Of a DNA stretch of 64,000 nt, positions 1 through 56,728 are shown piece by piece (position 1 is the stretch's first letter; each line of letters opens with the position of its first letter). A program made the position numbers and the translations under genes. Origin of the DNA: an uncultured Candidatus Actinomarina sp. (GTDB taxonomy: Bacteria > Actinomycetota > Acidimicrobiia > Actinomarinales > Actinomarinaceae); the NCBI GenBank assembly GCA_902593795.1, contig CACJJR010000001.1, forward strand, positions 4,170-68,169. The letters are read 5' to 3'. The notes beneath the pieces were generated by a model. That model had not been told where the DNA came from, searched no databases, and was given only the letters and a program-made list of their open reading frames with translations.

Positions 1-1
1 T

Positions 2-595
2 AAAAACTAGACCATAAAACAATTTATCTCTAAATAAATTATTTAGATTTCTATTTTTTTTCATAAAGATAATATAAATGAAGAATATAGCCATTATTAA
101 AGCTGTTTCTCTATTAAATATATGAAAGAAATTAATTACAAATAGATATTTAATATAGTGACTTTCCAAAATGATTAGTCCGTATAAAATAAAAAAAGTA
201 ATATCAATAAAATCCCAAACAAACAACCATTGATCTTGAGCAATAATAAATAGAGCATTAAAAACAATCAAAGAATTCAATATCTCAAATTTACTATTTG
301 TTAGTAAAGATATGCATTTTGCAAACAAAAAATTATTCAATAAGACAAAAATTAAAGCAAAAATTCTCATTGCCCACCATTTTGATAATCCTAATAAAGT
401 CATAACTTTTAACATTGCGGGCCCCATTAATCTACTTTGATTCACTCTCCAAGCTGGGGTTCTGTCTATAACATCATAAGAGCCTTGAATTAATTGAGTG
501 TTATATAAATTTTCCCAATGAAAAACATGTAAAAAACCTATTGTGGCAAAGCTTATTAAAAATACCGTAAGCTTAGAAATTTTTATATTTAACAC
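2..595 (-). CDS. Multi-pass membrane protein, probably GT-C-like (3' part outside window)
   Basis: Manually translated open frame from GTG at 595 (MLNIKISKLTVFLISFATIGFLHVFHW...WDFIDITFF...FNRETALIMA) to the window edge; hydrophobic; not in the ORF track. Confidence 0.65.
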   Translation of the reverse strand, partial: MLNIKISKLTVFLISFATIGFLHVFHWENLYNTQLIQGSYDVIDRTPAWRVNQSRLMGPAMLKVMTLLGLSKWWAMRIFALIFVLLNNFLFAKCISLLTNSKFEILNSLIVFNALFIIAQDQWLFVWDFIDITFFILYGLIILESHYIKYLFVINFFHIFNRETALIMAIFFIYIIFMKKNRNLNNLFRDKLFYGLVF

Positions 596-671
596 TTTTT
601 AAGTATAAAAAATCAAATGGTTGAATTCAATTTATACAAGATAAATAAAACTTGTTAATATTAAAATACTT

Positions 672-1325
672 ATGCTTTCATTAATTTCAAAACTAACCTA
701 CTTGCACAACATCTTTAGTAAATTGATCATTTCCTTACCTGTTTTTTTCACTCATAACTTCTCAAAATATATGAACATTAAAAATGCTTTTTACAATCTC
801 TCATTAGATCAAATAACTGGTGATTGTATAGAATTTGGAGTATTCACAGGATCTAGCTTCAAGCATGCTATAAGAGTAGACGCTAAGTTTAATAAAAAAT
901 CAAAATCATTATTTTATGGCTTAGATTCTTTTGAAGGCTTTCCTGATGATAGCCATCCTTACTTTAATCAAGAAAATTTTAAATCGAGTTATGAAAGAGC
1001 AAAAAAAATTGAAAAAAAGTTTAGTAATGCTCGAATAATAAAAGGATTCTTTTCAGATAGTCTCAATAATTCAGAAGTAAAAGATATTAAAAAAATAAAA
1101 TTTGCGTATATAGATTGCGATTTATACACGTCAGCGATTGAACCTATAAAATTTTTAGAAAATAGACTTGTAATAGGGTCTTATTTAATGATCGACGATT
1201 TTGTAAACATTGATCGACATGGAAGGTCTATCTCTGAGTTATTCTATAGTACTTTCAATGAAAAAAAAATGGTTTTTGTTAGTAGTTTCGGTGTATCTGG
1301 GGTTATTTATAGGTATGTAGGATAA
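672..1325 (+). CDS. TylF/MycF-family sugar O-methyltransferase
   Basis: GDCIEFGVFTG, GLDSFEGFP, IKGFF, AYIDCDLY, MIDDF motifs. Confidence 0.85.
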   Translation: MLSLISKLTYLHNIFSKLIISLPVFFTHNFSKYMNIKNAFYNLSLDQITGDCIEFGVFTGSSFKHAIRVDAKFNKKSKSLFYGLDSFEGFPDDSHPYFNQENFKSSYERAKKIEKKFSNARIIKGFFSDSLNNSEVKDIKKIKFAYIDCDLYTSAIEPIKFLENRLVIGSYLMIDDFVNIDRHGRSISELFYSTFNEKKMVFVSSFGVSGVIYRYVG

Positions 1326-1329
1326 AGTT

Positions 1330-3135
1330 ATGAAAGTTGATTATAAAAATCGTATTCAAAATATTTTTATAATCTTTTTTTTAATTTCATATTTAATTAT
1401 TCAATTCTTTGGATTAAATTATTTAAATGATCAATCAAAGAATGAATTCTGTGAATCAGTAATTTCGGTAGAAAGTCTAACAACTAAAAATTCAAATGAA
1501 ATTTATTTTGATTTTTTTAATGACAAAATTACATACAGGACATTAGATATTTTTCCTGAAATCGAAAATATAAAATGTTTATCTTTTGAAAGTAACTCAA
1601 ATAGTGAACGTGTAATCCTTACATCAAATAATTTTTATAATTTAATATTAATACTTACTTTTCTTGGAAGTATTTTTTTATTTTCATTACTGAAATACAG
1701 AAATATATTTATTTTTACAACTTTCATCTATCTGTGTTATTTAAATATAACTAAATTATTTTTTAAAGAATTTTTTTTAAATTATTATTTTTTATTAGCT
1801 GTATTTACTGTTTTTTTGTATTACTTAATTATCAATAAAGATTCTGACAATGACTTAATGGATTATATTAGAATTTTTTATTTTTCTTTTTACTCTATTA
1901 TTTTATTTTTCGATTATGAACTTTTTCAAAAGTTAATTATTTATCTAATTGCATTTTATTTAATTTTTTTAAGCTCAAAAAAATTAAATAGTAAGGAATT
2001 AATATTATTAAAACTTTTACCAATGATTTATTATGGATTAAGAATTTTATCTGGTATTTTTTTAAATCTAAATGTCACCTGGCAGAGATTGTCGGCAAAT
2101 ACATATCAATCCAATGAAAGATACGCTGATGGATTTTATGGATTAAATGTATTAAATTGTAATGCTACAGGATGTGACGAACGAAATAATTATGGACCAA
2201 TATGGGAATATTTATCTCTTGAGATGAACGTTGAAATTGTTTCAATAATCTTAGCTACTATTGTGATAATTCTGATGCTTCTAATTTACATAAAACTATT
2301 TAATATTTTACAAGTAGATAAATTTATTTTACAGTTTCTATTTATCAGCCCTCCTATTGTGTTTGGCCTTGAAAGAGGACAATTTGATTTCCATTTTGTT
2401 TTAATCTCTCTGTATGCGCTTCTAATTTTTAAAAAAAATAAATTAATAGCTTATTTGCTAATTTGCTTTGCAATTCAAGTAAAGCTTTATCCAATTTTTT
2501 TATTTGCAGGAATAGTTTTTTATTTCTACAAAATGAAAGAAACTAAAAACCTGATTGAGTCATTAGTGCTTCTTTTAATAAATTCATCAGTCTTATTATT
2601 TTATTATTTTAGAGTGAACTTCAGTGAAAGGATTCAAGATCAATCAGGAATATCACAAACTTATGGAATTCAAAGCCACGCGCAAAACTACAATGATTTC
2701 TTAAATGTCGATTTACTTATTGGGTATTTAGGCCAATTAATTATTATTTTATTACTTATTGGGTATTTTCTAAAAGTAAGACAAAACGAAAGCTTGAAAG
2801 AGCACAACTTTGTTTATCTAAGTTTTAGCAGTATGTTTATATTGAGTAGTCTTATAGGAAATATTGACTTCAGGCTAATAATATTTTGCATACCCCTTGT
2901 TTTTCTATTAGAGAATGGAATTAACTTTGTTTCAATCTCAGGATTATATTTAATTGCATCTTCTCCTTCGATGTATTTCAATGGTTTTCAAAATGTAAAT
3001 CAAAATATTCTATTTACAATTATTGAAACTATACCTGTTTTTATAAGCCATCTTTCTTTTTTAATAATGTTTAGCTACTTTATTTATGAATTTATTTTTT
3101 ACTTTTTCAAGAATGATATGCTTGCAAATAAATAG
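1330..3135 (+). CDS. GT-C fold membrane glycosyltransferase (GT87-like) with N-terminal two-Cys domain
   Basis: Many TM segments; NYGP, SPP..FGLERGQFD and KLYP motifs typical of GT87/DUF2029. Confidence 0.7.
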   Translation: MKVDYKNRIQNIFIIFFLISYLIIQFFGLNYLNDQSKNEFCESVISVESLTTKNSNEIYFDFFNDKITYRTLDIFPEIENIKCLSFESNSNSERVILTSNNFYNLILILTFLGSIFLFSLLKYRNIFIFTTFIYLCYLNITKLFFKEFFLNYYFLLAVFTVFLYYLIINKDSDNDLMDYIRIFYFSFYSIILFFDYELFQKLIIYLIAFYLIFLSSKKLNSKELILLKLLPMIYYGLRILSGIFLNLNVTWQRLSANTYQSNERYADGFYGLNVLNCNATGCDERNNYGPIWEYLSLEMNVEIVSIILATIVIILMLLIYIKLFNILQVDKFILQFLFISPPIVFGLERGQFDFHFVLISLYALLIFKKNKLIAYLLICFAIQVKLYPIFLFAGIVFYFYKMKETKNLIESLVLLLINSSVLLFYYFRVNFSERIQDQSGISQTYGIQSHAQNYNDFLNVDLLIGYLGQLIIILLLIGYFLKVRQNESLKEHNFVYLSFSSMFILSSLIGNIDFRLIIFCIPLVFLLENGINFVSISGLYLIASSPSMYFNGFQNVNQNILFTIIETIPVFISHLSFLIMFSYFIYEFIFYFFKNDMLANK

Positions 3136-3809
3136 TTTAATGTAGAAAATGAAAGGATTAATTTTCCTTTAATAGAACCTCCTCCTTTTGCTAGATTGAA
3201 GGCTCTATTATAAAAAATTAAATTAAAAAGCTTTATTTTATAGTCTGCTTTTCTTGAGGATATCAAAAGTGCGAGATCTAGGTTGAAATCATCTGGCAAT
3301 TTTTCTAAGTTTTTAACAAGTGATCTTGAAAATATTTTTGGTTGGGCATTAATATCTTTAAAGTAAAATCCCGAAAATATAAATGTTATTATTGACATCA
3401 TGCTTGTGAAAAACAAATCTAAAGTTTTTCTGTTTTCTCTTTTACCCATATATATATAATTATCTTTATCCTCACTTAGTAAAAATTTACTAATTAGACT
3501 TTGCACATCTGTTGCACTAATTTGAAGGTCTGCATGTGTCCAACATATATATTTATTATTAGTTTCTGAAATTCCATATTTAATTCCAAATCCATACCCT
3601 TTATTTTTAGGTACTTTAATTAAATTTAAATTTTTTGAATTTGCTTTTGATATTTCATTTATTAAAACTTTTAGTGTATTGTCTGTAGATCCATTATCAA
3701 TGAAGTGCACCATAATATTCTGATTTTCTAAAACAATTGTTTTCCATTGTTCGACCAGTGTCTTTACATTGCTGTCTTCGTTATAACACGGAATAAGTAA
3801 ATCAATCAT
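3099..3809 (-). CDS. GT2 glycosyltransferase, polyprenol-phosphate sugar synthase-like
   Basis: LIPCYNE, IDNGSTD, KNKGYG, THADLQ; 236 aa DPM-synthase-like size. Confidence 0.8.
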   Translation of the reverse strand: MIDLLIPCYNEDSNVKTLVEQWKTIVLENQNIMVHFIDNGSTDNTLKVLINEISKANSKNLNLIKVPKNKGYGFGIKYGISETNNKYICWTHADLQISATDVQSLISKFLLSEDKDNYIYMGKRENRKTLDLFFTSMMSIITFIFSGFYFKDINAQPKIFSRSLVKNLEKLPDDFNLDLALLISSRKADYKIKLFNLIFYNRAFNLAKGGGSIKGKLILSFSTLNYLFASISFLKK

Positions 3810-4533
3810 CTCTCAAGCCTTCCGAATATGAAGCATACTCTTTTGGGGTACCAATAATATCAATTTCAGTCAAAAGGTTTTCTAAATTGTAGTTTTGATT
3901 GTGTAATATTTCAAACATAGTATCTATGTAAAGCTCATTATTTATAAACATCTTATTTTCTACCATTTGTTTATATATCTTATGAAATAAAGATTTATTT
4001 TTAAAATAAAAAGATCCAGCAATTAAGAATGAGTCATTAACTCTATCTGGTGTTTCCTTACAAAAGATATTCTTAACTTTTTTTTCACCAATTACCCATC
4101 CATAATTATTTGCATTTTCTTTATGTTCCTCTTTTGGATACGTTGTGAAGACTAAGCTATCAACTTTAGAATTCTTATTTAATATTATTTTGTTTTTAAA
4201 TATTGCATCACATGAACCAACAAAAAAATCTTCCCCACTTGGAACCAAGTCTAAAGACTTTAAACAAGAAGTTGCTTGACCATTTGTAACCTCATCGAGT
4301 AATAATATGGTTTTATTTAAATTAAATTTCTCATAAAATTTTATAAATGTTTCATGCTCATAGACTTCTTTGTTGACTGTAAAAATCCACTTATCAGTAT
4401 TTGGAAAATTATTAATAACTTTTTCAATTATTGGTTTTCCATGTAGATCTATAAGAGGCTTTGGAATTTTATAGCCTTCATCTTTAAACCTCTGCCCTTT
4501 TCCAGACATAAGAACTATATTATTTTTTACCAT
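3802..4533 (-). CDS. Sugar-phosphate nucleotidyltransferase (NTP_transferase superfamily)
   Basis: MSGKGQRF..GY..PKPLI, GQA, CD, AGSFYF, NELY, GTP motifs. Confidence 0.8.
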   Translation of the reverse strand: MVKNNIVLMSGKGQRFKDEGYKIPKPLIDLHGKPIIEKVINNFPNTDKWIFTVNKEVYEHETFIKFYEKFNLNKTILLLDEVTNGQATSCLKSLDLVPSGEDFFVGSCDAIFKNKIILNKNSKVDSLVFTTYPKEEHKENANNYGWVIGEKKVKNIFCKETPDRVNDSFLIAGSFYFKNKSLFHKIYKQMVENKMFINNELYIDTMFEILHNQNYNLENLLTEIDIIGTPKEYASYSEGLRDD

Positions 4534-5123
4534 AATTTCTCTAAAACCTTCAAATCTTTACTTGTAATTTCCGCAATTACAAGGTCATGAAATTTTTCAT
4601 TAATTTTATTACTTTTGCTTAAAAACTTATTTTTTTCTTTTATATCTAAATTATTTATGTTTGTAACGGTAAAGTGTGGAATTAAATTTTCACCAACAAA
4701 TGGATAATTATATTTTTTAAAATCATTAATAAATTCGTTACTTAGATTTAAAAACTCACTCCCTTTAAATGGTTTAAATTTATTTAAAAGTTTAATCTGA
4801 AAAGTTTGAATTGGTTCTGGATTATCTATTAAATAAACCAATGTACTAAAATTTTTTTCCACATCATCTTCAAAAATGAACTGTCTATTTAGTTCATATG
4901 AATAATTTTTTAGCTCTTTTATTAAATTAATATTCTTCTTTATATTTTTTTCTAAGTTTTTGTAATCTCCATAAATTCCATGGAGAAGTGTCAAATGTGG
5001 AAAATCGTTTAAAAAATTTTGCTTATTTTCAAAAGATTTAAAATACTTCTTCATACTGTAAATTTCTTCAGCAGCTTTTTGGCCTGGAAGCAGAAATATT
5101 CCAATCTTTCTAAATTTCTGCAT
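4527..5123 (-). CDS. 2H phosphoesterase (2'-5' RNA ligase / cyclic phosphodiesterase superfamily)
   Basis: Two HxT motifs: PHLTL and PHFTV. Confidence 0.75.
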   Translation of the reverse strand: MQKFRKIGIFLLPGQKAAEEIYSMKKYFKSFENKQNFLNDFPHLTLLHGIYGDYKNLEKNIKKNINLIKELKNYSYELNRQFIFEDDVEKNFSTLVYLIDNPEPIQTFQIKLLNKFKPFKGSEFLNLSNEFINDFKKYNYPFVGENLIPHFTVTNINNLDIKEKNKFLSKSNKINEKFHDLVIAEITSKDLKVLEKLW

Positions 5124-6534
5124 TAAAATTCTTCATTATTTTACTGAATGTTTTTCTATCTGTGTTTAACATATATTTACTATTTAACTCTATGAATTGA
5201 ATTGGATAACCGTGGGGAACATTTATCAAATGCCACTTAGTTATTGGGATTTCTAATGAAAATCCTACCATACATCTAACAACACCTTGGTGAGTAAAAA
5301 ATACAGAATTTTTATTAATTGTTGAGAGTAATTTTTCTATTCTCTCATATACCATGGTATTATTTTCACCCTCTGGAAACTTGAAATCATCATCTTTTTG
5401 AATTGAATCTGAAATATATTCGTATTGATTAATCACTTCATCAAAAAAAAGTCCGTCGGCTTTTCCGTAATTAATTTCCTTTAGGTCCTCTGAGACATTA
5501 AAAGAGTTTATCTTAAGTTTATTTATTGTTTGAATGCATCTTGTAGATGGGGAAGAAAATATTTCAAAATTGGAAAAATCAAAATTTTTTAATTCTAAAG
5601 GTATATCTTGATTCTCAATAATATCTATTTCGTTTTCTGAGCCAAGAAACCTCCCATCATTTAAATTAGTTTTTAAATGTCTTATTAAAATAACCTTTTT
5701 AGATTTTTCTATATATTTATTTACAATTGAATCAAAATCGTTTAAAAAATTGCCTACAAGTTCGACTATATCGAGTTTTTCTAATTCTTTATTTAACTTA
5801 AGATTATATAGTTTTGAAAAGATTTTATTATATTTGTCATAAAGCTCTTCATATTCATCCTTCCACACCTTCATAAAATCATCAAACTTAAATTTGATAT
5901 TTTTATTTAAGTTGACTTTAAGAAGATTACTTATAGAGTTGTAAATTATATGATATGCAAATTCAATTGCATGTCTTTCATCTAGTTCATAGTAAGTCTT
6001 GACTTGTGCTAACTCACCATTTTGAGATTCATATCTTCTGTAGGAGATTCTGTTTTTCGAAATATCTTCTATATATTCCTTTGTCCCCCTTCTAGAGCTG
6101 ATAAAATCATTTAGCATTAATTTATGTACTGAGGAAATCTCACTTAATGAATATCCGGTAAAGTTCTCGGACCTTTCCCAATCAAAGCAGGTAAAAGGAG
6201 AATTTTCAACATGTTCTAAATGTAAATGATGATCATAAATCATTAGATGCAATACTAAATTATTTTTATTATCAAATTTTAAAGGACCAAATGTATCATT
6301 TATAAATATTTGTTTCTCAATATCAAGCTCATTTAAATCAATATTTGACAATGAGTTCTTTATTAAATCAATAATTCCAATATCAATTTTTTTTACAACA
6401 ACTATTATGTCAATATCTGAAATTCTTTCTAAATCCATACTGTTGATAGAACCAACAATGGTTGAACTAACAATATCAGAATTTTTTTTTAAAACATTAA
6501 ATATTGTTTTTATCAATAATTCTTCTTTTTTCAT
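5110..6534 (-). CDS. Fusion of pol-beta-type nucleotidyltransferase domain and histidine phosphatase
   Basis: N-term VGS-x9-SDIDIIVV; C-term IRH, SSP..RCIQT, LKEINYG, FPEGE, THQG. Confidence 0.75.
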   Translation of the reverse strand: MKKEELLIKTIFNVLKKNSDIVSSTIVGSINSMDLERISDIDIIVVVKKIDIGIIDLIKNSLSNIDLNELDIEKQIFINDTFGPLKFDNKNNLVLHLMIYDHHLHLEHVENSPFTCFDWERSENFTGYSLSEISSVHKLMLNDFISSRRGTKEYIEDISKNRISYRRYESQNGELAQVKTYYELDERHAIEFAYHIIYNSISNLLKVNLNKNIKFKFDDFMKVWKDEYEELYDKYNKIFSKLYNLKLNKELEKLDIVELVGNFLNDFDSIVNKYIEKSKKVILIRHLKTNLNDGRFLGSENEIDIIENQDIPLELKNFDFSNFEIFSSPSTRCIQTINKLKINSFNVSEDLKEINYGKADGLFFDEVINQYEYISDSIQKDDDFKFPEGENNTMVYERIEKLLSTINKNSVFFTHQGVVRCMVGFSLEIPITKWHLINVPHGYPIQFIELNSKYMLNTDRKTFSKIMKNFNAEI

Positions 6535-7586
6535 TGTTCAGAGTCTTGATATTTTTGTGAAGTCTGAAAATTTATAATCTGCTTCTTTGAGTCTTCATCA
6601 TTCAGTATTGATGAGGCAGATACTACTTCCTGAACATTAAATTTTGAAGCAATTTTTGGTGTTATACCTCCGTCAAGTGTGATCTTGACATCATTTACTT
6701 GCTCAGAAATTTTTATTAATTTATTTATTAAATCAGAATATTTATTTTGAAAAACTTGGCCAGAAAATCCAGCTTTACCAACACACAAAACCATAAAATT
6801 ACTAAATAAATTCATTAATTTAGAAATTTGGGATTCTGACATTTGATTGTGCAAGACTACTCCAGGAATAAAATTCTTACTTAAAATAAGAGACGAAATT
6901 TTTTCAATATTAACATTTTCGTCATAGTGAAAAAATACTTCAGTATTTCTTGATTTTGGAAGTTGACTAATCCAAAAGTTTGGATTTTTTGACATTAAAT
7001 GAATTTGTAATTTTTTCTGTGGCCATAATTCTCTTATTTTATTTAACATTTCAATATCAATTGAGATATTTTCAGAGTTGTAGGTCTCATCAATTAAATC
7101 TATATGTATAAAATCTGGAAAATTTTTTACTTTGTTAAATATTTCTAAAACGTTATTTGATTTATTTAGATGAATCGCTACACCTATTTTTTGATAATTT
7201 TTGAATGTATACCTTCTGTGTAAAAAATAAGCAATTAAAAAAAGAGCTCCAGAAATTTGAAACCGATTTTGAAAAAATTCTATATCAACAACATAACTAA
7301 ATGTAAATTGAACAATACAGGAAAAAATAGAAATTACAGTGAAATAAAATAGGGAAATTTTTATTCTCTCTTTTGGTACCTTGAAATTAAAATTTACATT
7401 AAGAATATATGCAACAGCAATGCTTGCTGAAATAGAAAATATATTTGAGAGCAAAAAATTAGTGTCAAAATATTTAATTAGATTAATTCGAATTATATTT
7501 TCAACCATTAAGCTTATAAAACCAATAATTGTGTAAAAAATTAAGAACCTTAGCTTATAAAATAATAAAATAACCCTATTGTCCAT
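6531..7586 (-). CDS. GtrA-like flippase fused to ribulose-phosphate 3-epimerase domain
   Basis: Four N-terminal TM helices (FNFK...YTFK); C-terminal IHIDLID, IHLM, GFSGQVF, LDGGI, SASSI Rpe motifs. Confidence 0.8.
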   Translation of the reverse strand: MDNRVILLFYKLRFLIFYTIIGFISLMVENIIRINLIKYFDTNFLLSNIFSISASIAVAYILNVNFNFKVPKERIKISLFYFTVISIFSCIVQFTFSYVVDIEFFQNRFQISGALFLIAYFLHRRYTFKNYQKIGVAIHLNKSNNVLEIFNKVKNFPDFIHIDLIDETYNSENISIDIEMLNKIRELWPQKKLQIHLMSKNPNFWISQLPKSRNTEVFFHYDENVNIEKISSLILSKNFIPGVVLHNQMSESQISKLMNLFSNFMVLCVGKAGFSGQVFQNKYSDLINKLIKISEQVNDVKITLDGGITPKIASKFNVQEVVSASSILNDEDSKKQIINFQTSQKYQDSEQ

Positions 7587-8277
7587 AATATTTATTTGGA
7601 CCGTGTTTTCTATTAAAGTGTTTGCTTGATATGAAATCTTCGATAGTTTCAGATGAAGGGTTCAGGTTTCTTGTAATAAAACACAACTCTGCCAGATATT
7701 CTATAATTTCAGCATTTTTTAATGCATCCTCTATTGTTTTTCCCCAAGAGAATACTCCGTGCCTTATAGACAAGATACCAGGAGTTTCTAACATTGAAAT
7801 CCCTTTGCTTTTAATTGTCTCTATTATTTTTTTTCCAGTATTTAATTCATAATCATTAACCACTTCGTCCTTATCAAGCTGTTCGGTTACAAATATGCTA
7901 TATTTAGAAAAATCAGAGTGTGTTGTTCCTAAATTTGGCACTTCTAAATTAGCTTGAGCAAAAGCAGTAGCATATTTTGAATGTGTGTGAACTACACCAT
8001 TAATGTCTTTATCTGTATACAAAATCCTATGAGTTGGCTCATCTGAAGATGGATTCAAATCTCCATCTAATTTATTCCCTTCAAGATCCATTTGAACCAT
8101 CTCTTTATGATTAGATTCTCTTAAGATAATCCCACTCGGCTTAATAACAAAGCCATTTAAAAATCTTGAACTTGCATTGCCAAAATTCTGTATGACTAAA
8201 TGGGAATTTTGTAACTCTGAATTTACTTTATAAACATTCCTCTTTGCATTATTTAATGAATCAGACATATATATCAT
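7576..8277 (-). CDS. araD: L-ribulose-5-phosphate 4-epimerase (class II aldolase family)
   Basis: GNAS, IKPSG, PSSDEPTH, VHTHS, GTTHSDF, HGVFSWG, C-terminal RKHGPNKYYGQ. Confidence 0.92.
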   Translation of the reverse strand: MIYMSDSLNNAKRNVYKVNSELQNSHLVIQNFGNASSRFLNGFVIKPSGIILRESNHKEMVQMDLEGNKLDGDLNPSSDEPTHRILYTDKDINGVVHTHSKYATAFAQANLEVPNLGTTHSDFSKYSIFVTEQLDKDEVVNDYELNTGKKIIETIKSKGISMLETPGILSIRHGVFSWGKTIEDALKNAEIIEYLAELCFITRNLNPSSETIEDFISSKHFNRKHGPNKYYGQ

Positions 8278-8340
8278 TTTAGATAAAGACTATAAAAAGT
8301 GCTTCTAAATAAAAGTTTTATGCAATTAAATTAATTAATG

Positions 8341-9291
8341 TTAAATGTCTAGATTTAAAAAATATGTTTTTGCACTATTGAAAAAAGCTTCTTCATTATT
8401 AAGCTCATATTCAAAATTATCTGGAACCCATAATGGGTCAAAATAAAAATCCAAAGGAAAAGATCCAAAATGCCATTTAGTAAACTTAACTAATTTTAAT
8501 GAAACTAAAATATTTCCTAAAAATTCAAAAAATTTAGAGTTAAAGCTTATATAACGAACTTTTTTTTCAATTTTTGTTCCTAGTGAATCAAGATGTTCTT
8601 TTAACGATTTTGGATTTGGTGCTCCAGCCGGCCAATTACCAGAGATTTTATTCATTCCAATATGTAATATCAATCTTGATAGGTCATTAACGTCAACAAA
8701 TTGTATTATTTGTCTTCCTTTGTTTGGTAGTGGTATTGGAATGTTGTATTTAATAAGTTTGAAAAATATTTCAAAGATTCCTTTTCTACTCATTCCCATA
8801 ATTGTCCTTGGTCTAATCACTGCATAATTGCTATCGTTTAAATACTTTGTTAAATTTATTTCTGTTTCAAGTTTTGTCTCTGCATAAGTATCAAGTGGAT
8901 TAAATTTTGTCGATTGTTGGACTGGTATTTCAAAAGGCTTTCCATATATTCCACTAGAACTTACATAAACAAAAAAAACTGAATCTAAATTAGATATTTG
9001 TTTTATCAGATTTAATGATGAAACAATATTTGTTTCATATAAATCTTTTTTTTTGCCTTTAAATGGTAAAACAGTAGCTGTGTGAATTATTAAATCGAAC
9101 TTATTTAAACTCTCTTTATTCTGTTCAAGATAGTTGTTTATGGACATTACTTTATATTCAAAATTTTCATATTTTTTTTTAGGTGCACTTATGTCAAGTG
9201 CTGTAATTCTATGATTTGTTTTAGATAAAATTTCACTTAGTCTTATTCCTAAAAAGCCTGAAGAACCAGTTAGTAATATTTTTAAATCCAT
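8341..9291 (-). CDS. NAD-dependent epimerase/dehydratase (extended SDR)
   Basis: TGSSGFLG, SSSGIYG, YAETK. Confidence 0.85.
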   Translation of the reverse strand: MDLKILLTGSSGFLGIRLSEILSKTNHRITALDISAPKKKYENFEYKVMSINNYLEQNKESLNKFDLIIHTATVLPFKGKKKDLYETNIVSSLNLIKQISNLDSVFFVYVSSSGIYGKPFEIPVQQSTKFNPLDTYAETKLETEINLTKYLNDSNYAVIRPRTIMGMSRKGIFEIFFKLIKYNIPIPLPNKGRQIIQFVDVNDLSRLILHIGMNKISGNWPAGAPNPKSLKEHLDSLGTKIEKKVRYISFNSKFFEFLGNILVSLKLVKFTKWHFGSFPLDFYFDPLWVPDNFEYELNNEEAFFNSAKTYFLNLDI

Positions 9292-9378
9292 AGATATATA
9301 CTAAATCTTAATTTTTTTTAATTACGATATGGTAAATAAGGTTTATGATGAGAATTGTGGTATTACTTATAAAGATTT

Positions 9379-10095
9379 ATGAATGAGAACACGGAACCTA
9401 GCTTAAATATTTACCTCATTGGAGGAAATTCAGTTATAGGTAAATCTATTCTTAGAGGTGTCCTGAAAAAATATGAAAACTTTTCTTTAAAAATAACCTC
9501 GTTCGTAAGAAGTGAATTTCAAGAAAAGACAATAGGAGAAAAAATTACTGTTAATAATTACCTTGAATGTTTAGACCACATAAATAGTAAGAGTTCCTGC
9601 AAAGAAGTTCCAAACATATATATCATTAGCTTTGGGGTATTGGTTGAAGAAAAAAACTCTGAAAATTTTCTAAACAATTTAAAATATCATTTGGATATTA
9701 ATACATTCCAATCATTCGAAATATTTAAATTTTTATTAAAACTTGATAAAACAAAGGAAATTCATATTGTATCAAGTGTATTGGGAGACTTTATCAGACC
9801 TAGTCTTTATTCATACTCTTTTTCTAAAAACTTACTTGAATTATTGATTAGTAATATTGACTTAAAGAAAAATTTAAAAAATAAATATTTTGTTTGGAAG
9901 CCAGCATTTGTAAATTCAAAGTTAAATAAAAATAGATCTGCAAGTTTTATCAAAACTAACCCTGAAAAAATTACAAATCTAGTTTTAAATACCAATAAAA
10001 GCGGGAGTTACTATATTCCTAAATATGCGGTTTTCTTTACTTTAATAGCTAAATATACAACACCATTAATTAAATTTATAGATAAGAAAAACTAA
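9379..10095 (+). CDS. Divergent short-chain dehydrogenase, DprE2-like
   Basis: GGNSVIG (cf. DprE2 GGTSEIG), SFGVL, SSVLG, YSFSK, PAFV.SK. Confidence 0.6.
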   Translation: MNENTEPSLNIYLIGGNSVIGKSILRGVLKKYENFSLKITSFVRSEFQEKTIGEKITVNNYLECLDHINSKSSCKEVPNIYIISFGVLVEEKNSENFLNNLKYHLDINTFQSFEIFKFLLKLDKTKEIHIVSSVLGDFIRPSLYSYSFSKNLLELLISNIDLKKNLKNKYFVWKPAFVNSKLNKNRSASFIKTNPEKITNLVLNTNKSGSYYIPKYAVFFTLIAKYTTPLIKFIDKKN

Positions 10096-11696
10096 AAATT
10101 CTTTTTTAACCATTTATTCATAAGTATCTCATTCAAAACCATAACTACTGCTTGTGGATTCCCCCATGGTGCATATGGCAAAAGTGACGCATCACAGATT
10201 TTAATTCTATTATCGTTTTTTAGCTCTCCTAATTCGCCAATATCTTTACTTATATTTAATGGCATGGATCCAAAAACATGGACTGTTGTCATGGGAGATA
10301 CTTTAGATTTAGGCCAAATATCATTAATATTTGTTGACTTAAGTAAATCTAAAAGGATATTAAATCCTTTTTCAATTTTTTTTCTATCTTTCTTTGATGT
10401 ATAACAAAATGGAATTAATTTACCAAATATATTCAAAAGCCTTCCATTAGAATTCTCTAAAACTGTACTACTAAAGTAACTTACTAATTTACCATCTATT
10501 GGCAAGTTGTTAGTTTTACCAAGAGATGCAAGCGTAGCTTTCACATATGGATAAGTTGAGACAGAATATCCAAATTTATAGATATAATCTGTTGTCCATG
10601 CTTGGTATGGTGGAAACAAATCCCCATCGTTCACAACGTCTTCATATTCCACTACTGCTCTGTTCATAGGATGAAAGTTAAAATATAATTTATCTTTGAT
10701 TAATCCTGAGTTTTTTAAAATTTGTGGAGTTCCAATAGTGCCTGCAGAAAGTACTATGTTTTTGGCTTTGATTGAATTTTTTTTATTTTTAGAAGTAATG
10801 ATGATTTCAATATAATCTATTTTAGGTAAAATTTTTACTACCTTTGATTCAGTAAAAATATCAACACCTTTTTCCTCTGATTCTTTTAAATAAGTTACTT
10901 GCATACTCTTATGTTCTTCAGCTGGTTTATAGGATCTCCACCTAGGCACTTCCTCACAAACTAAGCCTTTATTTTCTGACCCTTCAAGCAATGCAGATTT
11001 TATATTATCTAAAGAACCTTGAGGTGATTTTTGGACAGATATTTTTTGCTCAACTATTTTTTCATAGTACTGCCATTCTTCTTCTTCTAGATTACATTTT
11101 TCTAAAAAAGAACTTCTGTAAGGTTCCGTCAATTTAAAATATAATCCACTGTTGACTTCACTTCCACCTCCATACGTTTCTCCTTCTGTAAATAACATTG
11201 GTATATTTCCATAACAAAAATTTAGACCCTTCTTTTTGAATTGTTTCGTTGTTTGATCTAGTGAGTGGTGTTCTATTGCTCCAGGCAAGTATTTTGCACC
11301 AGACTCAATAAGAACGACACTTTTACCCTTTTCTAAAGACCTTAATGAAGCTATAGATCCTCCAGGTCCACTTCCAACAACTGCAATATCATAAATTTTA
11401 TCTAAATCTGTATTCATTTCATTTTCTATTTTTTTAACAGTAGATTCATTTTCTGATTCAAAAACTAAAATTACAATACCCGTGAGGAATCTAAATAATA
11501 TAAAGTTTTTATTTAAATTAATAAAGAAACTCGAAGAAGAAAACAAATTTAAAATTTTAAGATAAAAATACAAAATAAAACTCAATAAACCTGTACTGTT
11601 AATTCTTGAATATACACTTTTACATTTTTCTTCGTTATATTCATAATTTAAAAAATTTAATAATATATTAAGAGATTTATATTTGCTGTTTTTCAT
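10092..11696 (-). CDS. GMC-family FAD oxidoreductase with N-terminal extension
   Basis: VVGSGPGG, IESG, GGGSEVN, LSAGTIGTPQIL, HVFG, DASLLP...GNPQ. Confidence 0.88.
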   Translation of the reverse strand: MKNSKYKSLNILLNFLNYEYNEEKCKSVYSRINSTGLLSFILYFYLKILNLFSSSSFFINLNKNFILFRFLTGIVILVFESENESTVKKIENEMNTDLDKIYDIAVVGSGPGGSIASLRSLEKGKSVVLIESGAKYLPGAIEHHSLDQTTKQFKKKGLNFCYGNIPMLFTEGETYGGGSEVNSGLYFKLTEPYRSSFLEKCNLEEEEWQYYEKIVEQKISVQKSPQGSLDNIKSALLEGSENKGLVCEEVPRWRSYKPAEEHKSMQVTYLKESEEKGVDIFTESKVVKILPKIDYIEIIITSKNKKNSIKAKNIVLSAGTIGTPQILKNSGLIKDKLYFNFHPMNRAVVEYEDVVNDGDLFPPYQAWTTDYIYKFGYSVSTYPYVKATLASLGKTNNLPIDGKLVSYFSSTVLENSNGRLLNIFGKLIPFCYTSKKDRKKIEKGFNILLDLLKSTNINDIWPKSKVSPMTTVHVFGSMPLNISKDIGELGELKNDNRIKICDASLLPYAPWGNPQAVVMVLNEILMNKWLKKNF

Positions 11697-11805
11697 TATT
11701 TAATTATAGACTATTGGGTATAAACAAGAATTTGCATTCAAGTCTAATATTTTTAATTGTTGCTATCCTTTATACGTGATTGATATTAGAGTCTTGGGAG
11801 TTTAA

Positions 11806-12477
11806 ATGGATGCAATATTGCCTGCAGCTGGATTAGCTTCTCGAATGAGAGGTTTGCCTAAATTCTTGCTACCAACTGGCAAAGATTATATTTCATTACT
11901 CGAAGTTCATATATCTAATTTATCAGATATATGTGAAAGAATTTATCTTCCAACCAGGCCTGAATTAGCTCCAATAATTAAATCTTTAGATTTTAATTTT
12001 AGTAACACAGAAATACCCGAAATGGTAACCTCTACTATGTGTGAAACGGTAAACAATACTTTATCAATTTCAGAAGCTAATAATTTTATTTTAATTATGC
12101 CTGATACATTTTTTCTTGGCGAACAACCTTACGAAATTTTAGATAGTAATACTGAATTTTGTAATCTTGCATGCTGGAAAATAAGAGACGAACAAAGAGG
12201 TAAACTCGGTGAAGTAAGATTTGACGAAAATAAAAACGTTTTAGAAATGGTTGATAAAAAGCCTGATAATGGATTCGAGCATGCTTGGGGCGCCTTAACT
12301 TTTAATAGAAAACTTGAACAATATATTAATAATCAAGACCCTCACATAGGATATGCAGTTAAAGAATCTGTTAACAATGGCGAAAAAGTATCAGTAAGTC
12401 TCATAGAAGGAAACTACTTTGATTGTGGAACTCCTGAAGAGTACATAAAGTTGCTAAAAGAAACTTTATTGTCTTGA
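11806..12477 (+). CDS. Sugar-1-phosphate nucleotidyltransferase (RmlA-like, short)
   Basis: ILPAAGLASRM..PKFLLP, MPDT, DCGTPE; SD GGGAG upstream. Confidence 0.82.
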   Translation: MDAILPAAGLASRMRGLPKFLLPTGKDYISLLEVHISNLSDICERIYLPTRPELAPIIKSLDFNFSNTEIPEMVTSTMCETVNNTLSISEANNFILIMPDTFFLGEQPYEILDSNTEFCNLACWKIRDEQRGKLGEVRFDENKNVLEMVDKKPDNGFEHAWGALTFNRKLEQYINNQDPHIGYAVKESVNNGEKVSVSLIEGNYFDCGTPEEYIKLLKETLLS

Positions 12478-13181
12478 AAGATAATAATTTTCAGATTGTA
12501 GTTCCTTTTTACAATGATGAAGATAGTTTTGAAACCTTTGTAGAGATATTAAACAAAATGGAAACTGAAGATAATGCGTTTATCTTGCTTGATAATGGAT
12601 CAGATACAAATGAAATAAAAAAAATTGCAGAAAATAAACGTAAAAATAATTGGACTTTTGTTCGTTCTGAAAAAAATCTTGGCTTTGGTGGAGGAATTAA
12701 ATATGCTGCTGAATTTGTCGAGAAAGAATTTGTTGCGTGGATGCCGGGAAATTTAAAATTAAATCCATCAGATGTTTATGAAGTCATAGCTAAGCAAAAA
12801 TTGGATGAAAAGTATTTATATATCAAATGCGCGCGTAAAAATCGTCCAAAAATTGATCACCTAAAAACTAGAATATTTGGAATTATTGCAAGTATATATT
12901 TTGGAAAAAAAATATTCGATGCCGGAGGCACTCCCAATTTAATTCATAAAGATTTCTTTTCTATTGAAAAAGACTTTCCAAAAGATTTTTCATTTGATGT
13001 ATTTGTTTACTATTACTGCCTGTTAAATAGCTTTAAAATTAAAAGGCCATCCATTAGCTATAAAACAAGAGTTCATGGAGAATCTCACTGGCAAAAAGGT
13101 TTGATTAGCGAAATTAAATTAACTTTTAATATATTAAAGTACAAGAAACAATGGAAAGATATCTCAAAAATAAAAATTTAG
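12474..13181 (+). CDS. GT2 glycosyltransferase, paralog of 3099..3809
   Basis: VVPFYND, LDNGS, KNLGFGGGI, R.HGES.W; 4-nt TTGA overlap with upstream gene. Confidence 0.78.
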   Translation: MKDNNFQIVVPFYNDEDSFETFVEILNKMETEDNAFILLDNGSDTNEIKKIAENKRKNNWTFVRSEKNLGFGGGIKYAAEFVEKEFVAWMPGNLKLNPSDVYEVIAKQKLDEKYLYIKCARKNRPKIDHLKTRIFGIIASIYFGKKIFDAGGTPNLIHKDFFSIEKDFPKDFSFDVFVYYYCLLNSFKIKRPSISYKTRVHGESHWQKGLISEIKLTFNILKYKKQWKDISKIKI

Positions 13182-36373: not shown

Positions 36374-36967
36374 TTATCCTAGAGAATTTTCCCAAATTTT
36401 TATTTCATCATAATCAACCATTGTATAATCAGGAAAATACTCTATGTCCTTCAACTCTTTTATAACTTTATCAATTTCATTAATCCTGCCCCATCTTGAT
36501 GGTGAGACCAAACATGATTTAAATTTTTTTATAATTTCTAAATTTTGTTTTTCAATAGGAAGTTTGTTGAATGTATCAATCCACATCCAGTCAACTTTGT
36601 TTACCAAGTTTGAGGATGTCTTGATGTCTTCAAACTCTGAAAATCTCGTAGAAAGATACTGTCCTTTATCTTCATAGTTTTTAATTAAATAAGGAAATTC
36701 AATATCTAATAAGAAAAAGTTATCAATTTTATTCCTTTTTAATGTTTCTATTACAATATCTTCTATTCCAGAATCCTTTATATTTGCCACAAGAATTTTA
36801 TGACTATAATTCTGTAAAAATTTTTCAAACTCTGTGCTGCAATCAGAAGGTTCGTGACATAATACCAACTTATTATTCCTAATTCTTAGATCAAGCTCTA
36901 TTCCGTAATTAGTTGGTATTTTGCTTAACTTTTCTTCTGTATTGACCTTATGAACTATATATTCCAC
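36374..36967 (-). CDS. PLC/GDPD-like phosphodiesterase-fold protein
   Basis: H.VN, GIELDLR, HEP, NIK, R.SEFE, WID.F, LVSP. Confidence 0.6.
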   Translation of the reverse strand: MEYIVHKVNTEEKLSKIPTNYGIELDLRIRNNKLVLCHEPSDCSTEFEKFLQNYSHKILVANIKDSGIEDIVIETLKRNKIDNFFLLDIEFPYLIKNYEDKGQYLSTRFSEFEDIKTSSNLVNKVDWMWIDTFNKLPIEKQNLEIIKKFKSCLVSPSRWGRINEIDKVIKELKDIEYFPDYTMVDYDEIKIWENSLG

Positions 36968-36983: not shown

Positions 36984-38510
36984 ATGAGCGAAACTTTTCT
37001 TAAACTAAGAAAATTGAATGATATAAATCTAGAAAAATCTTTAATTTATATAAACTACTTTTCACTAATCGTATTAATTTATGTAATTTTTAGATTATTG
37101 TTCATTGCATTTTTCCAAAATAGCTACGAACTATTATTTACAGATGAAAGAATAATTATCAATGATATATACAACGTATGGAATTTAGATAATGAGTTTG
37201 ATAGATACGGTAATGTAGAAAATCAAACTTTGAAAAATGTTTTATTAGTAATAACTGAGATTGTATATGGAGGTGATCTTAGGTATGGAAGAATATGGTC
37301 AAATATCTTTATTTTTTTACTTGGACCTTTTTCACTAATAAACGACCAGGTGCTTATTACTGCTGTTAGGGTTTTTACAATTTTTATTTATTTTATTTCT
37401 ATAAATTTACTTATAAATTTATTTTTAGATAAAAATTTAAAGTGGTTTTATTTACTACTGTTTTACTCCATACCAGGGGCATTTTATTTTAATATTGTCC
37501 CAAAACCAGATCCTTTTGTAATACTGTTCATTGCTTTTGCTCTTTTATCAATAAAAAAAGAAAATTTTAATTGGGCATTATTTTTACTAGGTGTAGCAAC
37601 CGGAGTAAAGGTAGTAGGAATATTTGCATTAGCTTTAGTTGTTATATATCTATTACTTACTAATAAAATTAAAGTTAAAATTTCTTCTTTCTTTAAAATT
37701 TTACTATTACCTTGGTGCGGTCTTATATTTGCAAATCCTATACTTTTAATTCCACCTTTAAATATTGGGTCTCTGCCAAATTTTTATAAAATATACTACA
37801 ACTGGATAAACTCACAGTCCTTATACGGACAAGAAGAAAGATTTAATATTAACCATTTAACGCTTTGGTCAGACAGTATAAGCTTACAATTCTCATTTAA
37901 TTTATTAAAAAGTTCTGTATTTACATTTTTTCTAATAATTATTGTTTTGTATGTTGCGTTGCAGCTAGTTAGAAATAAACAGTATTTGATTTTTACTCTC
38001 ATAACTATCGGAGTAAGCCATCTATTTTTTATTTTCTTGTCAGTTGAGAGACAATGGTTAATGTATTTAAATTTCTCATTTATTTTTATATTTATTGGTT
38101 TGATTTACTTTATAACTAACACCTCTAAAAGAAAACATTTATTAATAATCTTTTTGTTTTTTACGGTAATCCCAACTGGAATTTACAATTTAAATGACTC
38201 TTTTTCTACAAAAAATCTTGAGGACACGACTGATATACAAGATATTGAACTTGTAATAAATAAAATAAATACTCTCTACAAATCAAAATCTAATAGTTTC
38301 AATATCGTCTATTGGGATCCAAAATATGGCATGGCAAGAAATAATGTCACTCATGTAGGAAGCTTCGGAATAAAAGAGCACTGGGAATTTAAAAACTTGA
38401 ATGACACTTTACAAAAAAGTGATTTTTATATAACTAAAGTAACAAAATTAAATAACGATTTTCTTTTTGATACTGCGGGAGAATATTTTATCTATTACAA
38501 AAATAATTAA
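36984..38510 (+). CDS. GT-C-like membrane glycosyltransferase
   Basis: TM1 followed by DE, then YG, PKPDP, GVATGVK motifs; multi-TM. Confidence 0.65.
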   Translation: MSETFLKLRKLNDINLEKSLIYINYFSLIVLIYVIFRLLFIAFFQNSYELLFTDERIIINDIYNVWNLDNEFDRYGNVENQTLKNVLLVITEIVYGGDLRYGRIWSNIFIFLLGPFSLINDQVLITAVRVFTIFIYFISINLLINLFLDKNLKWFYLLLFYSIPGAFYFNIVPKPDPFVILFIAFALLSIKKENFNWALFLLGVATGVKVVGIFALALVVIYLLLTNKIKVKISSFFKILLLPWCGLIFANPILLIPPLNIGSLPNFYKIYYNWINSQSLYGQEERFNINHLTLWSDSISLQFSFNLLKSSVFTFFLIIIVLYVALQLVRNKQYLIFTLITIGVSHLFFIFLSVERQWLMYLNFSFIFIFIGLIYFITNTSKRKHLLIIFLFFTVIPTGIYNLNDSFSTKNLEDTTDIQDIELVINKINTLYKSKSNSFNIVYWDPKYGMARNNVTHVGSFGIKEHWEFKNLNDTLQKSDFYITKVTKLNNDFLFDTAGEYFIYYKNN

Positions 38511-38530
38511 AAAAGTGTGTGTATTTGCTC

Positions 38531-39487: not shown

Positions 39488-39546
39488 ATTCTAATCGTTT
39501 GGTACTTTCAAATAGTAGAACCATTTAAACAATTTTTAATCAAATA

Positions 39547-40920: not shown

Positions 40921-41014
40921 TTAACTTCTTTAATATCTTATAGTCAGTTTATTAATTTATGAAAGATTATATTTATCTATATTGCTTTTTTGCTAGAAAT
41001 TTTTTTTTCTTACT

Positions 41015-41020
41015 TATAAT
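41015..41020 (+). promoter_or_regulatory. -10 box (TATAAT) of probable leaderless promoter
   Basis: TATAAT-6 nt-ATG at 41027, no SD. Confidence 0.55.
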
Positions 41021-41026
41021 CAATGT

Positions 41027-51246: not shown

Positions 51247-51322
51247 TGGTGGCCAGAGGCAGAATCGAACTGCCGACCCCTTGTTTTTCAGACAAGTGCT
51301 CTACCGACTGAGCTATCTGGCC
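51247..51322 (-). tRNA. tRNA-Phe(GAA)
   Basis: GGCCAGA acceptor stem, CT-GAA-AA loop, GTTCGATT T-loop, encoded CCA. Confidence 0.97.
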
Positions 51323-51327
51323 AAAAG

Positions 51328-51402
51328 CGGGGACGACGGGATTCGAACCCGCGACCTCCTGCGTGACAGGCAGGCGTGAACTCCAGACTTCACCACGCCC
51401 CC
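51328..51402 (-). tRNA. tRNA-Asp(GTC)
   Basis: GGGGGCG/CGTCCCC stem, CT-GTC-AC loop, GGTTCGAATCC; CCA not encoded. Confidence 0.96.
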
Positions 51403-52966: not shown

Positions 52967-52973
52967 CTTTTAG

Positions 52974-56724: not shown

Positions 56725-56728
56725 AGAT

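Follow-up and report, generated by a model that had tools for sequence, protein, structure and literature searches.

What product unites a chain of genes in which pentulose-phosphate epimerases stand beside phosphate-handling enzymes and components of lipid-linked glycosylation? The question is raised by a 64,000-nucleotide stretch (hereafter the window) of the genome of an uncultured Candidatus Actinomarina sp. (GenBank assembly GCA_902593795.1; contig CACJJR010000001.1, positions 4,170 to 68,169), for which an initial reading of the bare sequence (the original prediction) had proposed a six-gene operon that activates a ketopentose for lipid-linked glycosylation. We find that these genes represent a real, conserved and previously uncharacterised pathway. 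We put at roughly 55% the probability that this pathway faces the cytoplasm, is tethered to the membrane and converts a ketopentose phosphate into a lipid-linked pentose-type donor for glycosylation outside the cell.

The six minus-strand open reading frames (ORFs) are chained end-to-start over 3099-8277 in a region of about 25% G+C, with successive overlaps of 11, 4, 14, 7 and 8 nt from the AraD gene down to that of a family 2 glycosyltransferase (GT2). The 3' end of the GT2 gene in turn overlaps a convergent gene for a GT-C-type glycosyltransferase (1330-3135, plus strand) by 37 nt, so the ORF coordinates bear out the layout originally described. Gene identities were assigned by Pfam and NCBIfam profile searches of the window ORFs, and the names first given to all six genes were confirmed, that of the 198-aa ORF through its motifs and the PF13563 matches of its orthologues:

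7576..8277, minus strand: AraD-type L-ribulose-5-phosphate 4-epimerase, 233 aa (NF006047; alignment with 1JDI)
6531..7586, minus strand: fusion of a GtrA-like module with four transmembrane segments (residues ~18-128) to a divergent Rpe-like barrel (~140-340) (PF04138; PF00834)
5110..6534, minus strand: fusion of an ANT-like O-nucleotidyltransferase (residues 2-275) to a histidine phosphatase (277-463) (AlphaFold2 model; PF00300)
4527..5123, minus strand: predicted 2H-family (cyclic) phosphodiesterase, 198 aa (H-x-T motifs; PF13563 matches of orthologues)
3802..4533, minus strand: sugar-phosphate nucleotidylyltransferase, 243 aa (PF00483; PF12804; relative 4evw)
3099..3809, minus strand: short GT2, candidate polyprenyl-phosphate glycosyltransferase, 236 aa (PF00535; ArnC/GtrB relatives)
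1330..3135, plus strand: GT-C-type polytopic glycosyltransferase, 601 aa, convergent with the GT2 gene (PF09594, GT87)

Below, the third and fifth of these are termed NTase-HisPhos (for nucleotidyltransferase and histidine phosphatase) and NTP-transferase. A scan of positions 1-12000 for promoters and terminators returned fewer promoter-like sites than shuffled sequences and terminators at about the shuffle mean, and is uninformative in such AT-rich DNA.

The first issue is whether this arrangement is more than accidental. Scanning prokaryotic genomes, one for each species, yielded 34 loci with a full-length GtrA-Rpe fusion (one plain Rpe-like match was set aside), spread over at least 11 phyla of bacteria and archaea; the fusion family comprises 56 sequence clusters. 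The bacterial loci come from Pelagibacteraceae and other Alphaproteobacteria, Ca. Actinomarina, Chitinophagaceae, Verrucomicrobiota, Gemmatimonadota, Neomarinimicrobiota, Spirochaetia and Saccharibacteria/Patescibacteria, and the archaeal ones from Woesearchaeota, Nanoarchaeota, Micrarchaeota, Thermoplasmatota and a Methanosarcinales bin. Family hidden Markov models (HMMs) built on these loci place NTase-HisPhos directly downstream of, or fused to, GtrA-Rpe in all 34 (33 strong matches and one weak), and recover the 2H protein in 31, the NTP-transferase in 28, AraD and GT2 in 24 each, and a protein with the fold of glycerophosphodiester phosphodiesterases (GDPD), taken up below, in 22. Most absences fall at contig ends and the gene order is almost constant. 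Several of these genes are also fused: GtrA-Rpe-NTase(-HisPhos) in nine loci of archaea or the candidate phyla radiation (CPR), NTase-HisPhos-2H in two of Chitinophagaceae, NTase-HisPhos-NTP-transferase in one of a spirochaete (L026) and NTP-transferase-GT2 in one of a Woesearchaeote (L032), with nine more four-domain proteins among the longer homologues. In the four-domain fusions of L011, L021, L022 and L035 (archaeal/CPR; 960-985 aa) the GtrA module is preceded by 120-140 additional residues.

The original prediction would have fallen had its genes not co-occurred elsewhere; they recur, with synteny and fusions, and because the same set is found in 34 loci of other organisms, the association exceeds chance juxtaposition. 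One could still suppose that an ordinary module for nucleoside diphosphate (NDP)-hexose, polyprenyl-phosphate-hexose and GT-C transfer merely lies next to one for pentose-phosphate metabolism or nucleotide repair, as glycan islands are mosaics of swapped cassettes according to the account in PMC7771536, and as neither the NTP-transferase nor the GT2 bears a feature proving pentose use. We consider this extremely unlikely: the fusions of L026 and L032 span both halves, the NTP-transferase remains with the core genes even when the GT2 is elsewhere, and the order is kept across at least 11 phyla.

The loci also revise the composition of the system. Four loci, one from Verrucomicrobiota, two from Gemmatimonadota and one unclassified, contain only the core (GtrA-Rpe, NTase-HisPhos, 2H and NTP-transferase), set among housekeeping genes, and in 3 of 3 core-alone genomes GT2 and GDPD genes stand side by side at another site. 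The system is hence a four-gene core plus an accessory set (AraD, GT2, GDPD, an extra GtrA and GT-C), and the two sets can sit apart. The earlier interpretation is thus supported in part, as regards co-occurrence, biosynthetic epimerases and a lipid-linked scheme, and is corrected as to the division into core and accessory genes and the GDPD-fold component, which it had overlooked. The stand-alone cores allow another interpretation, namely that the core serves to make something other than a glycan, for example the head group of a membrane lipid or a soluble phosphorylated metabolite, with GT2, GDPD and GT-C joining later in some lineages. The cores of L014, L019 and L031 do lie among housekeeping genes (for instance ribosomal protein S9, ArgJ, ABC-F and DsbD), and that of L019 has PAP2 and second 2H genes nearby; against this, the same genomes retain the GT2+GDPD pair elsewhere and the GtrA module belongs to the core itself, which leaves a non-glycan product very unlikely.

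The overlooked component is a conserved gene encoding ~196 aa that follows GT2 in 22 loci. An HMM built from 20 of the locus proteins finds its window member (236 bits, E 1e-72) 33 kb from the operon, divergent from a further polytopic protein:

36374..36967, minus strand: compact GDPD-fold phosphodiesterase, 197 aa (family HMM; AlphaFold2 model)
36984..38510, plus strand: second GT-C candidate, 508 aa, divergent from the GDPD gene (weak GT87 match)

The GDPD-type protein matched no Pfam family at E values up to 10, and the family profile found no sequence match in the PDB. Its AlphaFold2 model (predicted local distance difference test, pLDDT, 95.8) aligns with the GDPD of P. furiosus at Z 15.7 (192 aligned residues; root-mean-square deviation, rmsd, 3.0), GDPD structures scoring Z 15.7-14 vs ~11.5 for unrelated TIM barrels, and its neighbours include the teichoic-acid enzyme GlpQ and phage K gp155. 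H6, E24, D26 and H38 are invariant; the H-R, E-x-D and second-His positions presumably correspond to the characteristic functional sites of GDPDs. On the strength of this model we regard the protein as a compact GDPD-fold phosphodiesterase and a part of the system. The second GT-C candidate has ~10 hydrophobic segments in a crude hydropathy scan and a GT87 score of 20.7 bits, below the cut-off. It is the first in a series of polytopic membrane proteins, none assigned to a Pfam family, over 36984-44526 (36984-38510, 39547-40920, 41317-42876 and 42847-44526), two of which show faint GT-C-like matches (GT87, TMEM260-like).

In which direction do the epimerases act? The AraD protein matches Aldolase_II (PF00596) at 119 bits, the subfamily NF006047 at 246.2 bits (cut-off 257) and TIGR00760 at 211 (cut-off 389), and aligns over its full length (residues 2-231; 166 bits) with E. 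coli AraD (1JDI). The stretches PSSDxPTH, VHTHS, GTTHxD, xHG and the C-terminal YYGQ align identically; we take them to contain the residues for metal binding and acid/base catalysis, among them the C-terminal Tyr. It is the sole class II aldolase-family (Aldolase_II) gene of the genome. The Rpe domain matches Ribul_P_3_epim (PF00834) at 82.8 bits and keeps the motifs HxDxxD, HLM and DGG; across 26 sequences H161, D163, D166, H196, M198 and D305-G-G show little or no variation, and they line up with Rpe structures, the conserved His/Asp/His/Asp positions presumably being metal ligands. Its TIGR01163 score of 86.3 bits does not reach the equivalog level (212.6). Because these positions are kept while the score lies far below that cut-off, we regard the cassette Rpe as a specialised paralogue, whose substrate may differ from D-ribulose 5-phosphate. 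A separate, better-scoring housekeeping Rpe lies on contig 2 of the genome. The original prediction had remarked on the absence of araA from the window, and an AraA domain was not found in the whole genome either (1.07 Mb, 89% complete). Since a housekeeping Rpe is present in addition and AraA was not found, the epimerases look biosynthetic, as had been suggested; that AraD is the only gene of its family fits the same picture.

AraD was present in 5 of 5 tested genomes with a stand-alone core. As a universal requirement it is unsupported, given that the sole AraD of one of these (G042) is part of a gene cluster for arabinose catabolism. The cassette of a Methylacidiphilales bin lacks an AraD of its own and lies divergent from a complete araB-araA-araD set (L009:2372-6427); one AraD may there serve both the catabolic and the biosynthetic use of L-ribulose 5-phosphate.

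The most unusual protein of the core is NTase-HisPhos, a family of at least 258 sequence clusters, none of them functionally named. The window member matches His_Phos_1 (PF00300) at 65 bits, and its N-terminus matches the Polbeta family (PF18765) weakly, at 18.8 bits, below the cut-off of 26.9; some family members carry precomputed PF18765 or PF01909 matches. In its AlphaFold2 model (pLDDT 92.4), residues 2-275 match ANT(3'')(9) (7uy4; Z 11.2, rmsd 4.1, 217 aligned) and AAD(9) (6sxj; Z 10.8), both as matches of fold only, while residues 277-463 match histidine phosphatases, PhoE at Z 18.6 with CobC and FBPase-2 close behind, all within Z 16-18.6; the best family match of this domain is CobC. 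A Foldseek search with the two-domain model gave histidine-phosphatase matches only, the ANT-like part being seen in the full VIA scan, and an ESM Atlas search with residues 1-275 returned only unnamed or NTP_transf_2 clusters. Both catalytic signatures are invariant in 38 sequences: G28, S29 and D40-x-D42 (G-S...D-x-D) in the first half, and R285, H286, R332, E353 and H415 (RH...R...E...H) in the second. ANT-fold enzymes normally put a nucleoside monophosphate (NMP) on a hydroxyl group. The model thus points to an ANT-like O-nucleotidyltransferase, made up of an NTase domain and a helical substrate domain, as the N-terminal half; the earlier label "NTase" stands, and is refined to an enzyme predicted to add a nucleotide to a hydroxyl. 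A LicD/fukutin-type phosphotransferase was also considered for this half; no such structure was among the matches listed, an absence that does not exclude it.

The 198-aa window protein has no Pfam match of its own, and a PDB sequence search with it gave no usable match. It has the motifs HLTL at 43 and HFTV at 150, in which H43 and H150 are kept in 23 of 23 orthologues and T45 in 22 of 23, and three orthologues lie above the PF13563 cut-off of 27, among them L031:12529-13161 (49.7 bits) and L038:12471-13025 (61 bits), which together indicate a 2H-family phosphoesterase. Two loci have additional 2H genes. At L012:7330-7860, a gene of the CPDase type (PF07823, the ADP-ribose cyclic phosphate phosphodiesterase family) lies just upstream of GT2, besides the cassette's own 2H; and at L019:15131-16914, in a Gemmatimonas bin, the four-gene core is 2-3 kb away from a further 2H gene and a PAP2 phosphatase of 421 aa.

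How would the activated sugar be delivered? The NTP-transferase matches PF00483 at 38 bits and PF12804 at 29 bits, with the NDP-sugar pyrophosphorylase 4evw as its best solved relative and an IspD/TarI match of only 17.9 bits, a profile typical of the sugar-1-phosphate type and not of the IspD/TarI type. The GT2 matches Glycos_transf_2 (PF00535) at 62 bits, and its nearest solved relatives are ArnC (E 1.6e-6) and GtrB sll0501 (E 1.9e-4), both weak and limited to the N-terminal half. The GtrA module scores 37.3 bits against GtrA_DPMS_TM (PF04138; cut-off 26.1), and the small ORFs found between NTP-transferase and GT2 proved to be stand-alone GtrA proteins in 6 of 6 cases tested, giving a second GtrA in at least six loci. 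The convergent GT-C gene of the window scores 29.1 bits against GT87 (PF09594; cut-off 25) and has ~11 hydrophobic segments; in L010 a PMT_2 GT-C follows directly after GDPD, and at ~15 other loci polytopic proteins of 500-650 aa with 8-13 hydrophobic segments (these counts again from the crude scan) lie beside the cassette, so that GT87, PMT_2 or polytopic proteins adjoin most cassettes. Because the GT2 is nearest to ArnC and GtrB and is accompanied by GtrA and GT-C genes, the sequences support, as originally suggested, a sugar that is loaded onto a carrier lipid and used outside the membrane.

Two genes flanking the operon may bear on the nature of the decoration:

672..1325, plus strand: TylF-like O-methyltransferase, directly upstream of the GT-C gene, possible accessory (PF05711, 55.8 bits)
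8341..9291, minus strand: extended short-chain dehydrogenase/reductase (SDR), 64 nt upstream of AraD, possibly co-transcribed (PF01370, 80 bits)

TylF-like genes adjoin the cassette in four loci (the window, L017, L023 and L034). Near other cassettes, relatives of the extended SDR are weak and scattered (L010, L029, L030 and L038), and the gene is not a conserved part. Its position does suit a decoration resembling teichoic acids, in which a CDP-5-pentulose made directly from a ketopentose 5-phosphate, optionally reduced by the SDR, would be installed as a pentulose- or pentitol-phosphate through a phosphodiester, with GDPD, 2H and the histidine phosphatase trimming or recycling phosphodiesters. 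Pneumococcus 17F reportedly provides a precedent in the conversion of CDP-xylulose to CDP-arabinitol. Another is the route from CDP-6-fructose to CDP-6-glucitol in C. jejuni, with cytidylyl transfer onto a ketose phosphate, as set out in a part of PMC10918830. The GlpQ and gp155 neighbours of the GDPD model point the same way, as does a GT47/exostosin-like protein at 17680-18708 that matches the RXYLT1 C-terminal domain (ribitol-phosphate xylosyltransferase family). However, the NTP-transferase is of the PF00483/GlmU-N sugar-1-phosphate type with only the faint IspD/TarI match given above; LicD, TagF and CDP-alcohol transferases are absent from every cassette examined; the NTase matches ANT, with no LicD or FKRP among the matches listed (not in itself an exclusion); conservation of the cassette does not extend to the SDR; and GT2, GtrA and GT-C indicate a glycosyl carrier lipid. 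A phosphodiester-linked decoration is on balance unlikely.

Returning to a lipid-linked pentose-type donor, we infer the chemical steps, their order, the sugar and the nucleotide from the observed gene identities, folds, catalytic motifs, co-occurrence and fusions. Ketopentose 5-phosphates would be taken from the pentose phosphate pathway, AraD would interconvert D-xylulose 5-phosphate and L-ribulose 5-phosphate, and the dedicated Rpe-like barrel would carry out a further 3-epimerisation. The histidine phosphatase would then strip the 5-phosphate, a step needed because a ketopentose cannot close to a furanose before it. The ANT-like domain would place an NMP on a sugar hydroxyl, the NMP-sugar phosphodiester would give a cyclic phosphate, and the 2H enzyme would open this to an anomeric sugar phosphate, the net effect of these three activities being to relocate phosphate to the anomeric position, a hindered hemiketal carbon. 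The NTP-transferase would form the NDP-sugar (NDP-pentulose or NDP-pentose), the short GT2 would load the sugar onto polyprenyl phosphate, the GtrA modules would help to present or flip the lipid-linked sugar, and the GT-C enzyme would transfer it to an envelope glycan. The gene order parallels this proposed order of steps. Roles for the ANT-like, 2H and GDPD-fold enzymes are inferred in the same manner, and the 2H protein could alternatively salvage cyclic phosphate from decaying NDP-furanoses, which are labile and decay to that product. Since neither an aldose-ketose isomerase nor a reductase belongs to the conserved genes of the cassette in the loci examined, the sugar would most simply be a pent-2-ulofuranose (ribulose or xylulose, of the L-series where AraD is used), possibly O-methylated. 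This particular sugar, combined with nucleotidylation and cyclic-phosphate chemistry, is a tentative proposal that we ourselves regard as doubtful. It is possible, with similarly low confidence, that the cassette embodies a new route for activating a ketopentose at its hindered anomeric carbon, by dephosphorylation, ANT nucleotidylation, cyclic-phosphate formation and 2H opening, leading to NDP- and then polyprenyl-phospho-pentulofuranose.

Several observations weigh against the pathway as drawn. Its chemical steps are deduced from sequence; a kinase would be cheaper than the detour by nucleotidylation and a cyclic phosphate, for which we know of no precedent in sugar activation. The likeness of the GT2 to ArnC and GtrB is confined to the generic GT-A half, and its best NCBIfam match is PgaC. 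The scheme gives GDPD no step, though it is as conserved as GT2. With 86 bits against an equivalog cut-off of 213, the Rpe domain may act on something other than ribulose 5-phosphate, and because the only AraD of the core-alone genome G042 belongs to an arabinose-catabolic cluster, AraD may be dispensable or shared. The stand-alone cores of Gemmatimonadota and Verrucomicrobiota lie among housekeeping genes and not in a glycan island. More weakly, the scan of the genome collection gave no locus from known xylulofuranose makers, one genome per species being covered, so that serotype strains were possibly not included.

Comparison with established pathways places these proposals in context. The nearest analogue at the membrane is the Gtr three-component type (GtrA/GtrB/GtrC of Shigella and Salmonella phages; CsbB-GtcA-YfhO; ArnC/ArnT), with which the cassette shares a GT2 near ArnC and GtrB, GtrA modules and an accompanying GT-C. 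Known Gtr-type systems use housekeeping UDP-Glc, UDP-GlcNAc or UDP-Ara4FN, whereas the cassette brings five enzymes of its own for donor synthesis as well as a GDPD-fold phosphodiesterase, and joins its GtrA in one protein with an Rpe-like epimerase, to which archaea and CPR bacteria add the NTase and the phosphatase.

In biosynthetic logic, the cassette recalls the mycobacterial decaprenyl-phospho-arabinose pathway, which comprises Rv3806c, Rv3807c, DprE1/DprE2, the GtrA-like Rv3789 and the Emb/Aft GT-C enzymes. Both would draw a pentose from pentose-phosphate metabolism, remove a 5-phosphate, use dedicated epimerisation and a GtrA-like protein, and present a lipid-linked pentofuranose to GT-C enzymes. 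However, the conserved set of the cassette has no UbiA-type phosphoribosyl pyrophosphate (PRPP) transferase, PAP2 phosphatase or DprE1/E2, and would instead employ Rpe/AraD epimerisation of ketose phosphates and an NDP-sugar step (NTP-transferase, GT2). In a functional parallel to this pathway, the end product might be an aldopentofuranose, such as arabinofuranose or ribofuranose, on polyprenyl phosphate, in which case one of the conserved domains would conceal an isomerase or mutase. The mycobacterial locus likewise joins a GtrA-like protein, a 5-phosphatase and GT-C enzymes; CobC, the best family match of the phosphatase domain, removes the 5'-phosphate of a ribofuranoside; the histidine-phosphatase superfamily includes mutases (dPGM is among the structure matches); and araB-araA-araD lies divergent beside the cassette in L009. 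An aldopentofuranose nonetheless appears improbable, as the loci examined share no conserved gene for an aldose-ketose isomerase, a PRPP-type transferase or a UbiA-like protein, and as the SDR/GMC pair beside the window cassette (9379-11696) is not conserved elsewhere.

The ketopentose-derived donor that we favour also follows the logic of the ADP-heptose pathway (GmhA-HldE-GmhB-HldD), in which a pentose-pathway ketose phosphate gains an anomeric phosphate, loses the distal one and becomes an NDP-sugar; the cassette differs in having neither isomerase nor kinase, the ANT-like NTase and 2H standing in the kinase's place, and in a phosphatase of the histidine-phosphatase and not the HAD type. 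The step proposed for the 2H protein is known from the yeast and plant 2H cyclic phosphodiesterase, which opens ADP-ribose 1'',2''-cyclic phosphate and leaves the phosphate on the anomeric carbon, but which serves the disposal of a tRNA-splicing by-product and not donor synthesis. The two-domain architecture of NTase-HisPhos resembles that of 6-phosphofructo-2-kinase/fructose-2,6-bisphosphatase, with its similar C-terminal histidine phosphatase and an N-terminus that modifies the anomeric hydroxyl of a ketofuranose phosphate. In that regulatory enzyme the N-terminus is a P-loop kinase, whereas in the cassette it is a nucleotidyltransferase of the Pol-beta/ANT type. Finally, in the CDP-alditol routes (TarI/TarJ, AbpA/AbpB; also CDP-6-glucitol, as described in part of PMC10918830) ketose phosphates similarly enter nucleotide activation directly for surface polymers, but these routes use an IspD-family cytidylyltransferase, a reductase and LicD- or TagF-type delivery, none of which is conserved in the cassette.

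Within a given lineage the cassette is rarely found. The locus closest to that of the window, also from Ca. Actinomarina (L006), shares 41-63% identity per gene; the full-length central fusion is found in 2 of 65 species genomes of Actinomarinales, including the present one, and a GtrA-Rpe query found none in 24 same-genus genomes. The cassette is present in 7 of 301 sampled genomes, many of them incomplete, of a Pelagibacteraceae-level family. In a tree of NTase-HisPhos (29 rows, with six truncated loci omitted) most phyla form single clades, and only among the fused forms do CPR bacteria and archaea mingle. The tree does not support simple horizontal spread from phylum to phylum; with only the fused forms mixing, exchange seems to occur mostly within the flexible islands of lineages, with cross-domain transfer among groundwater CPR and DPANN forms. 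No NTase-HisPhos relative was present among 49 pattern matches in viral contigs.

Actinomarinales are described in PMC7771536 as having a single flexible "glycotype" island of 43-79 kb and 28% G+C, with tRNAs as insertion hot spots. The window fits such an island in its glycan genes, its low G+C and its four tRNA genes (Phe, Asp, Lys and Arg), which lie at 51247-57919 on the far side of the glycan region. Near-identical DNA occurs in 17 marine or aquatic metagenome runs from at least seven studies (at least 0.74 of sampled words). Every gene is matched in part, at 0-4 differences, by contigs from three RNA libraries (two studies), a result that DNA carry-over could also give and in which the contigs indicate neither strand nor transcript.

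Adjoining the operon, 9379-13181 holds a possible second carrier-lipid sugar module, which is not conserved with the cassette elsewhere and whose SDR and GMC enzymes could be an oxidase/reductase epimerisation pair:

9379-10095, plus strand: short SDR with a weak DprE2-like match
10092-11696, minus strand: GMC flavin oxidoreductase with an N-terminal extension of ~100 aa
11806-12477, plus strand: NTP_transf_3 gene
12474-13181, plus strand: another GT2

Further along, 26536-29079 encodes an 847-aa fusion of an NDP-sugar SDR (epimerase/reductase) to a zinc-ribbon C-methyltransferase, whose product is probably a branched, C-methylated deoxysugar.

Xylulofuranose, in both D and L forms, is a rare but known component of bacterial glycans, as reported in parts of PMC8707391, PMC11380512 and PMC9614988. 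Its producers include Devosia submarina KMM 9415, E. coli O95 and O97, Yersinia enterocolitica O:10, Campylobacter jejuni RM1221 and Eubacterium saburreum T15. The nucleotide precursor of xylulofuranose and the genes responsible are given as not identified in the relevant section of a 2019 review of E. coli O-antigens (PMC7685785). In the literature on this gene combination and on pentulose donors we found no description of the cassette, although the island gene list in Supplementary Table S3 of PMC7771536 might contain these genes. The scheme that leads from NDP-sugar through carrier-lipid sugar to GT-C is familiar; the donor-making module is not. To our knowledge, neither an ANT-like NTase fused to a histidine phosphatase nor 2H and GDPD-fold enzymes have previously been tied to sugar activation. 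As pentulofuranose activation is left undefined in the pertinent parts of PMC7685785 and PMC11380512, the cassette offers a concrete and testable candidate. Its carriers include some of the most abundant bacteria of the ocean, as well as CPR and DPANN organisms with chemically uncharacterised envelopes. The cassette also represents one of the exchangeable units of the glycotype islands, to which phage evasion in streamlined marine bacteria is attributed (as discussed in part of PMC7771536). If the new activation route outlined above is real, the cassette would supply the missing donor pathway for ribulo- and xylulofuranose in prokaryotic surface glycans, one common to SAR11, Actinomarina, CPR bacteria and DPANN archaea.

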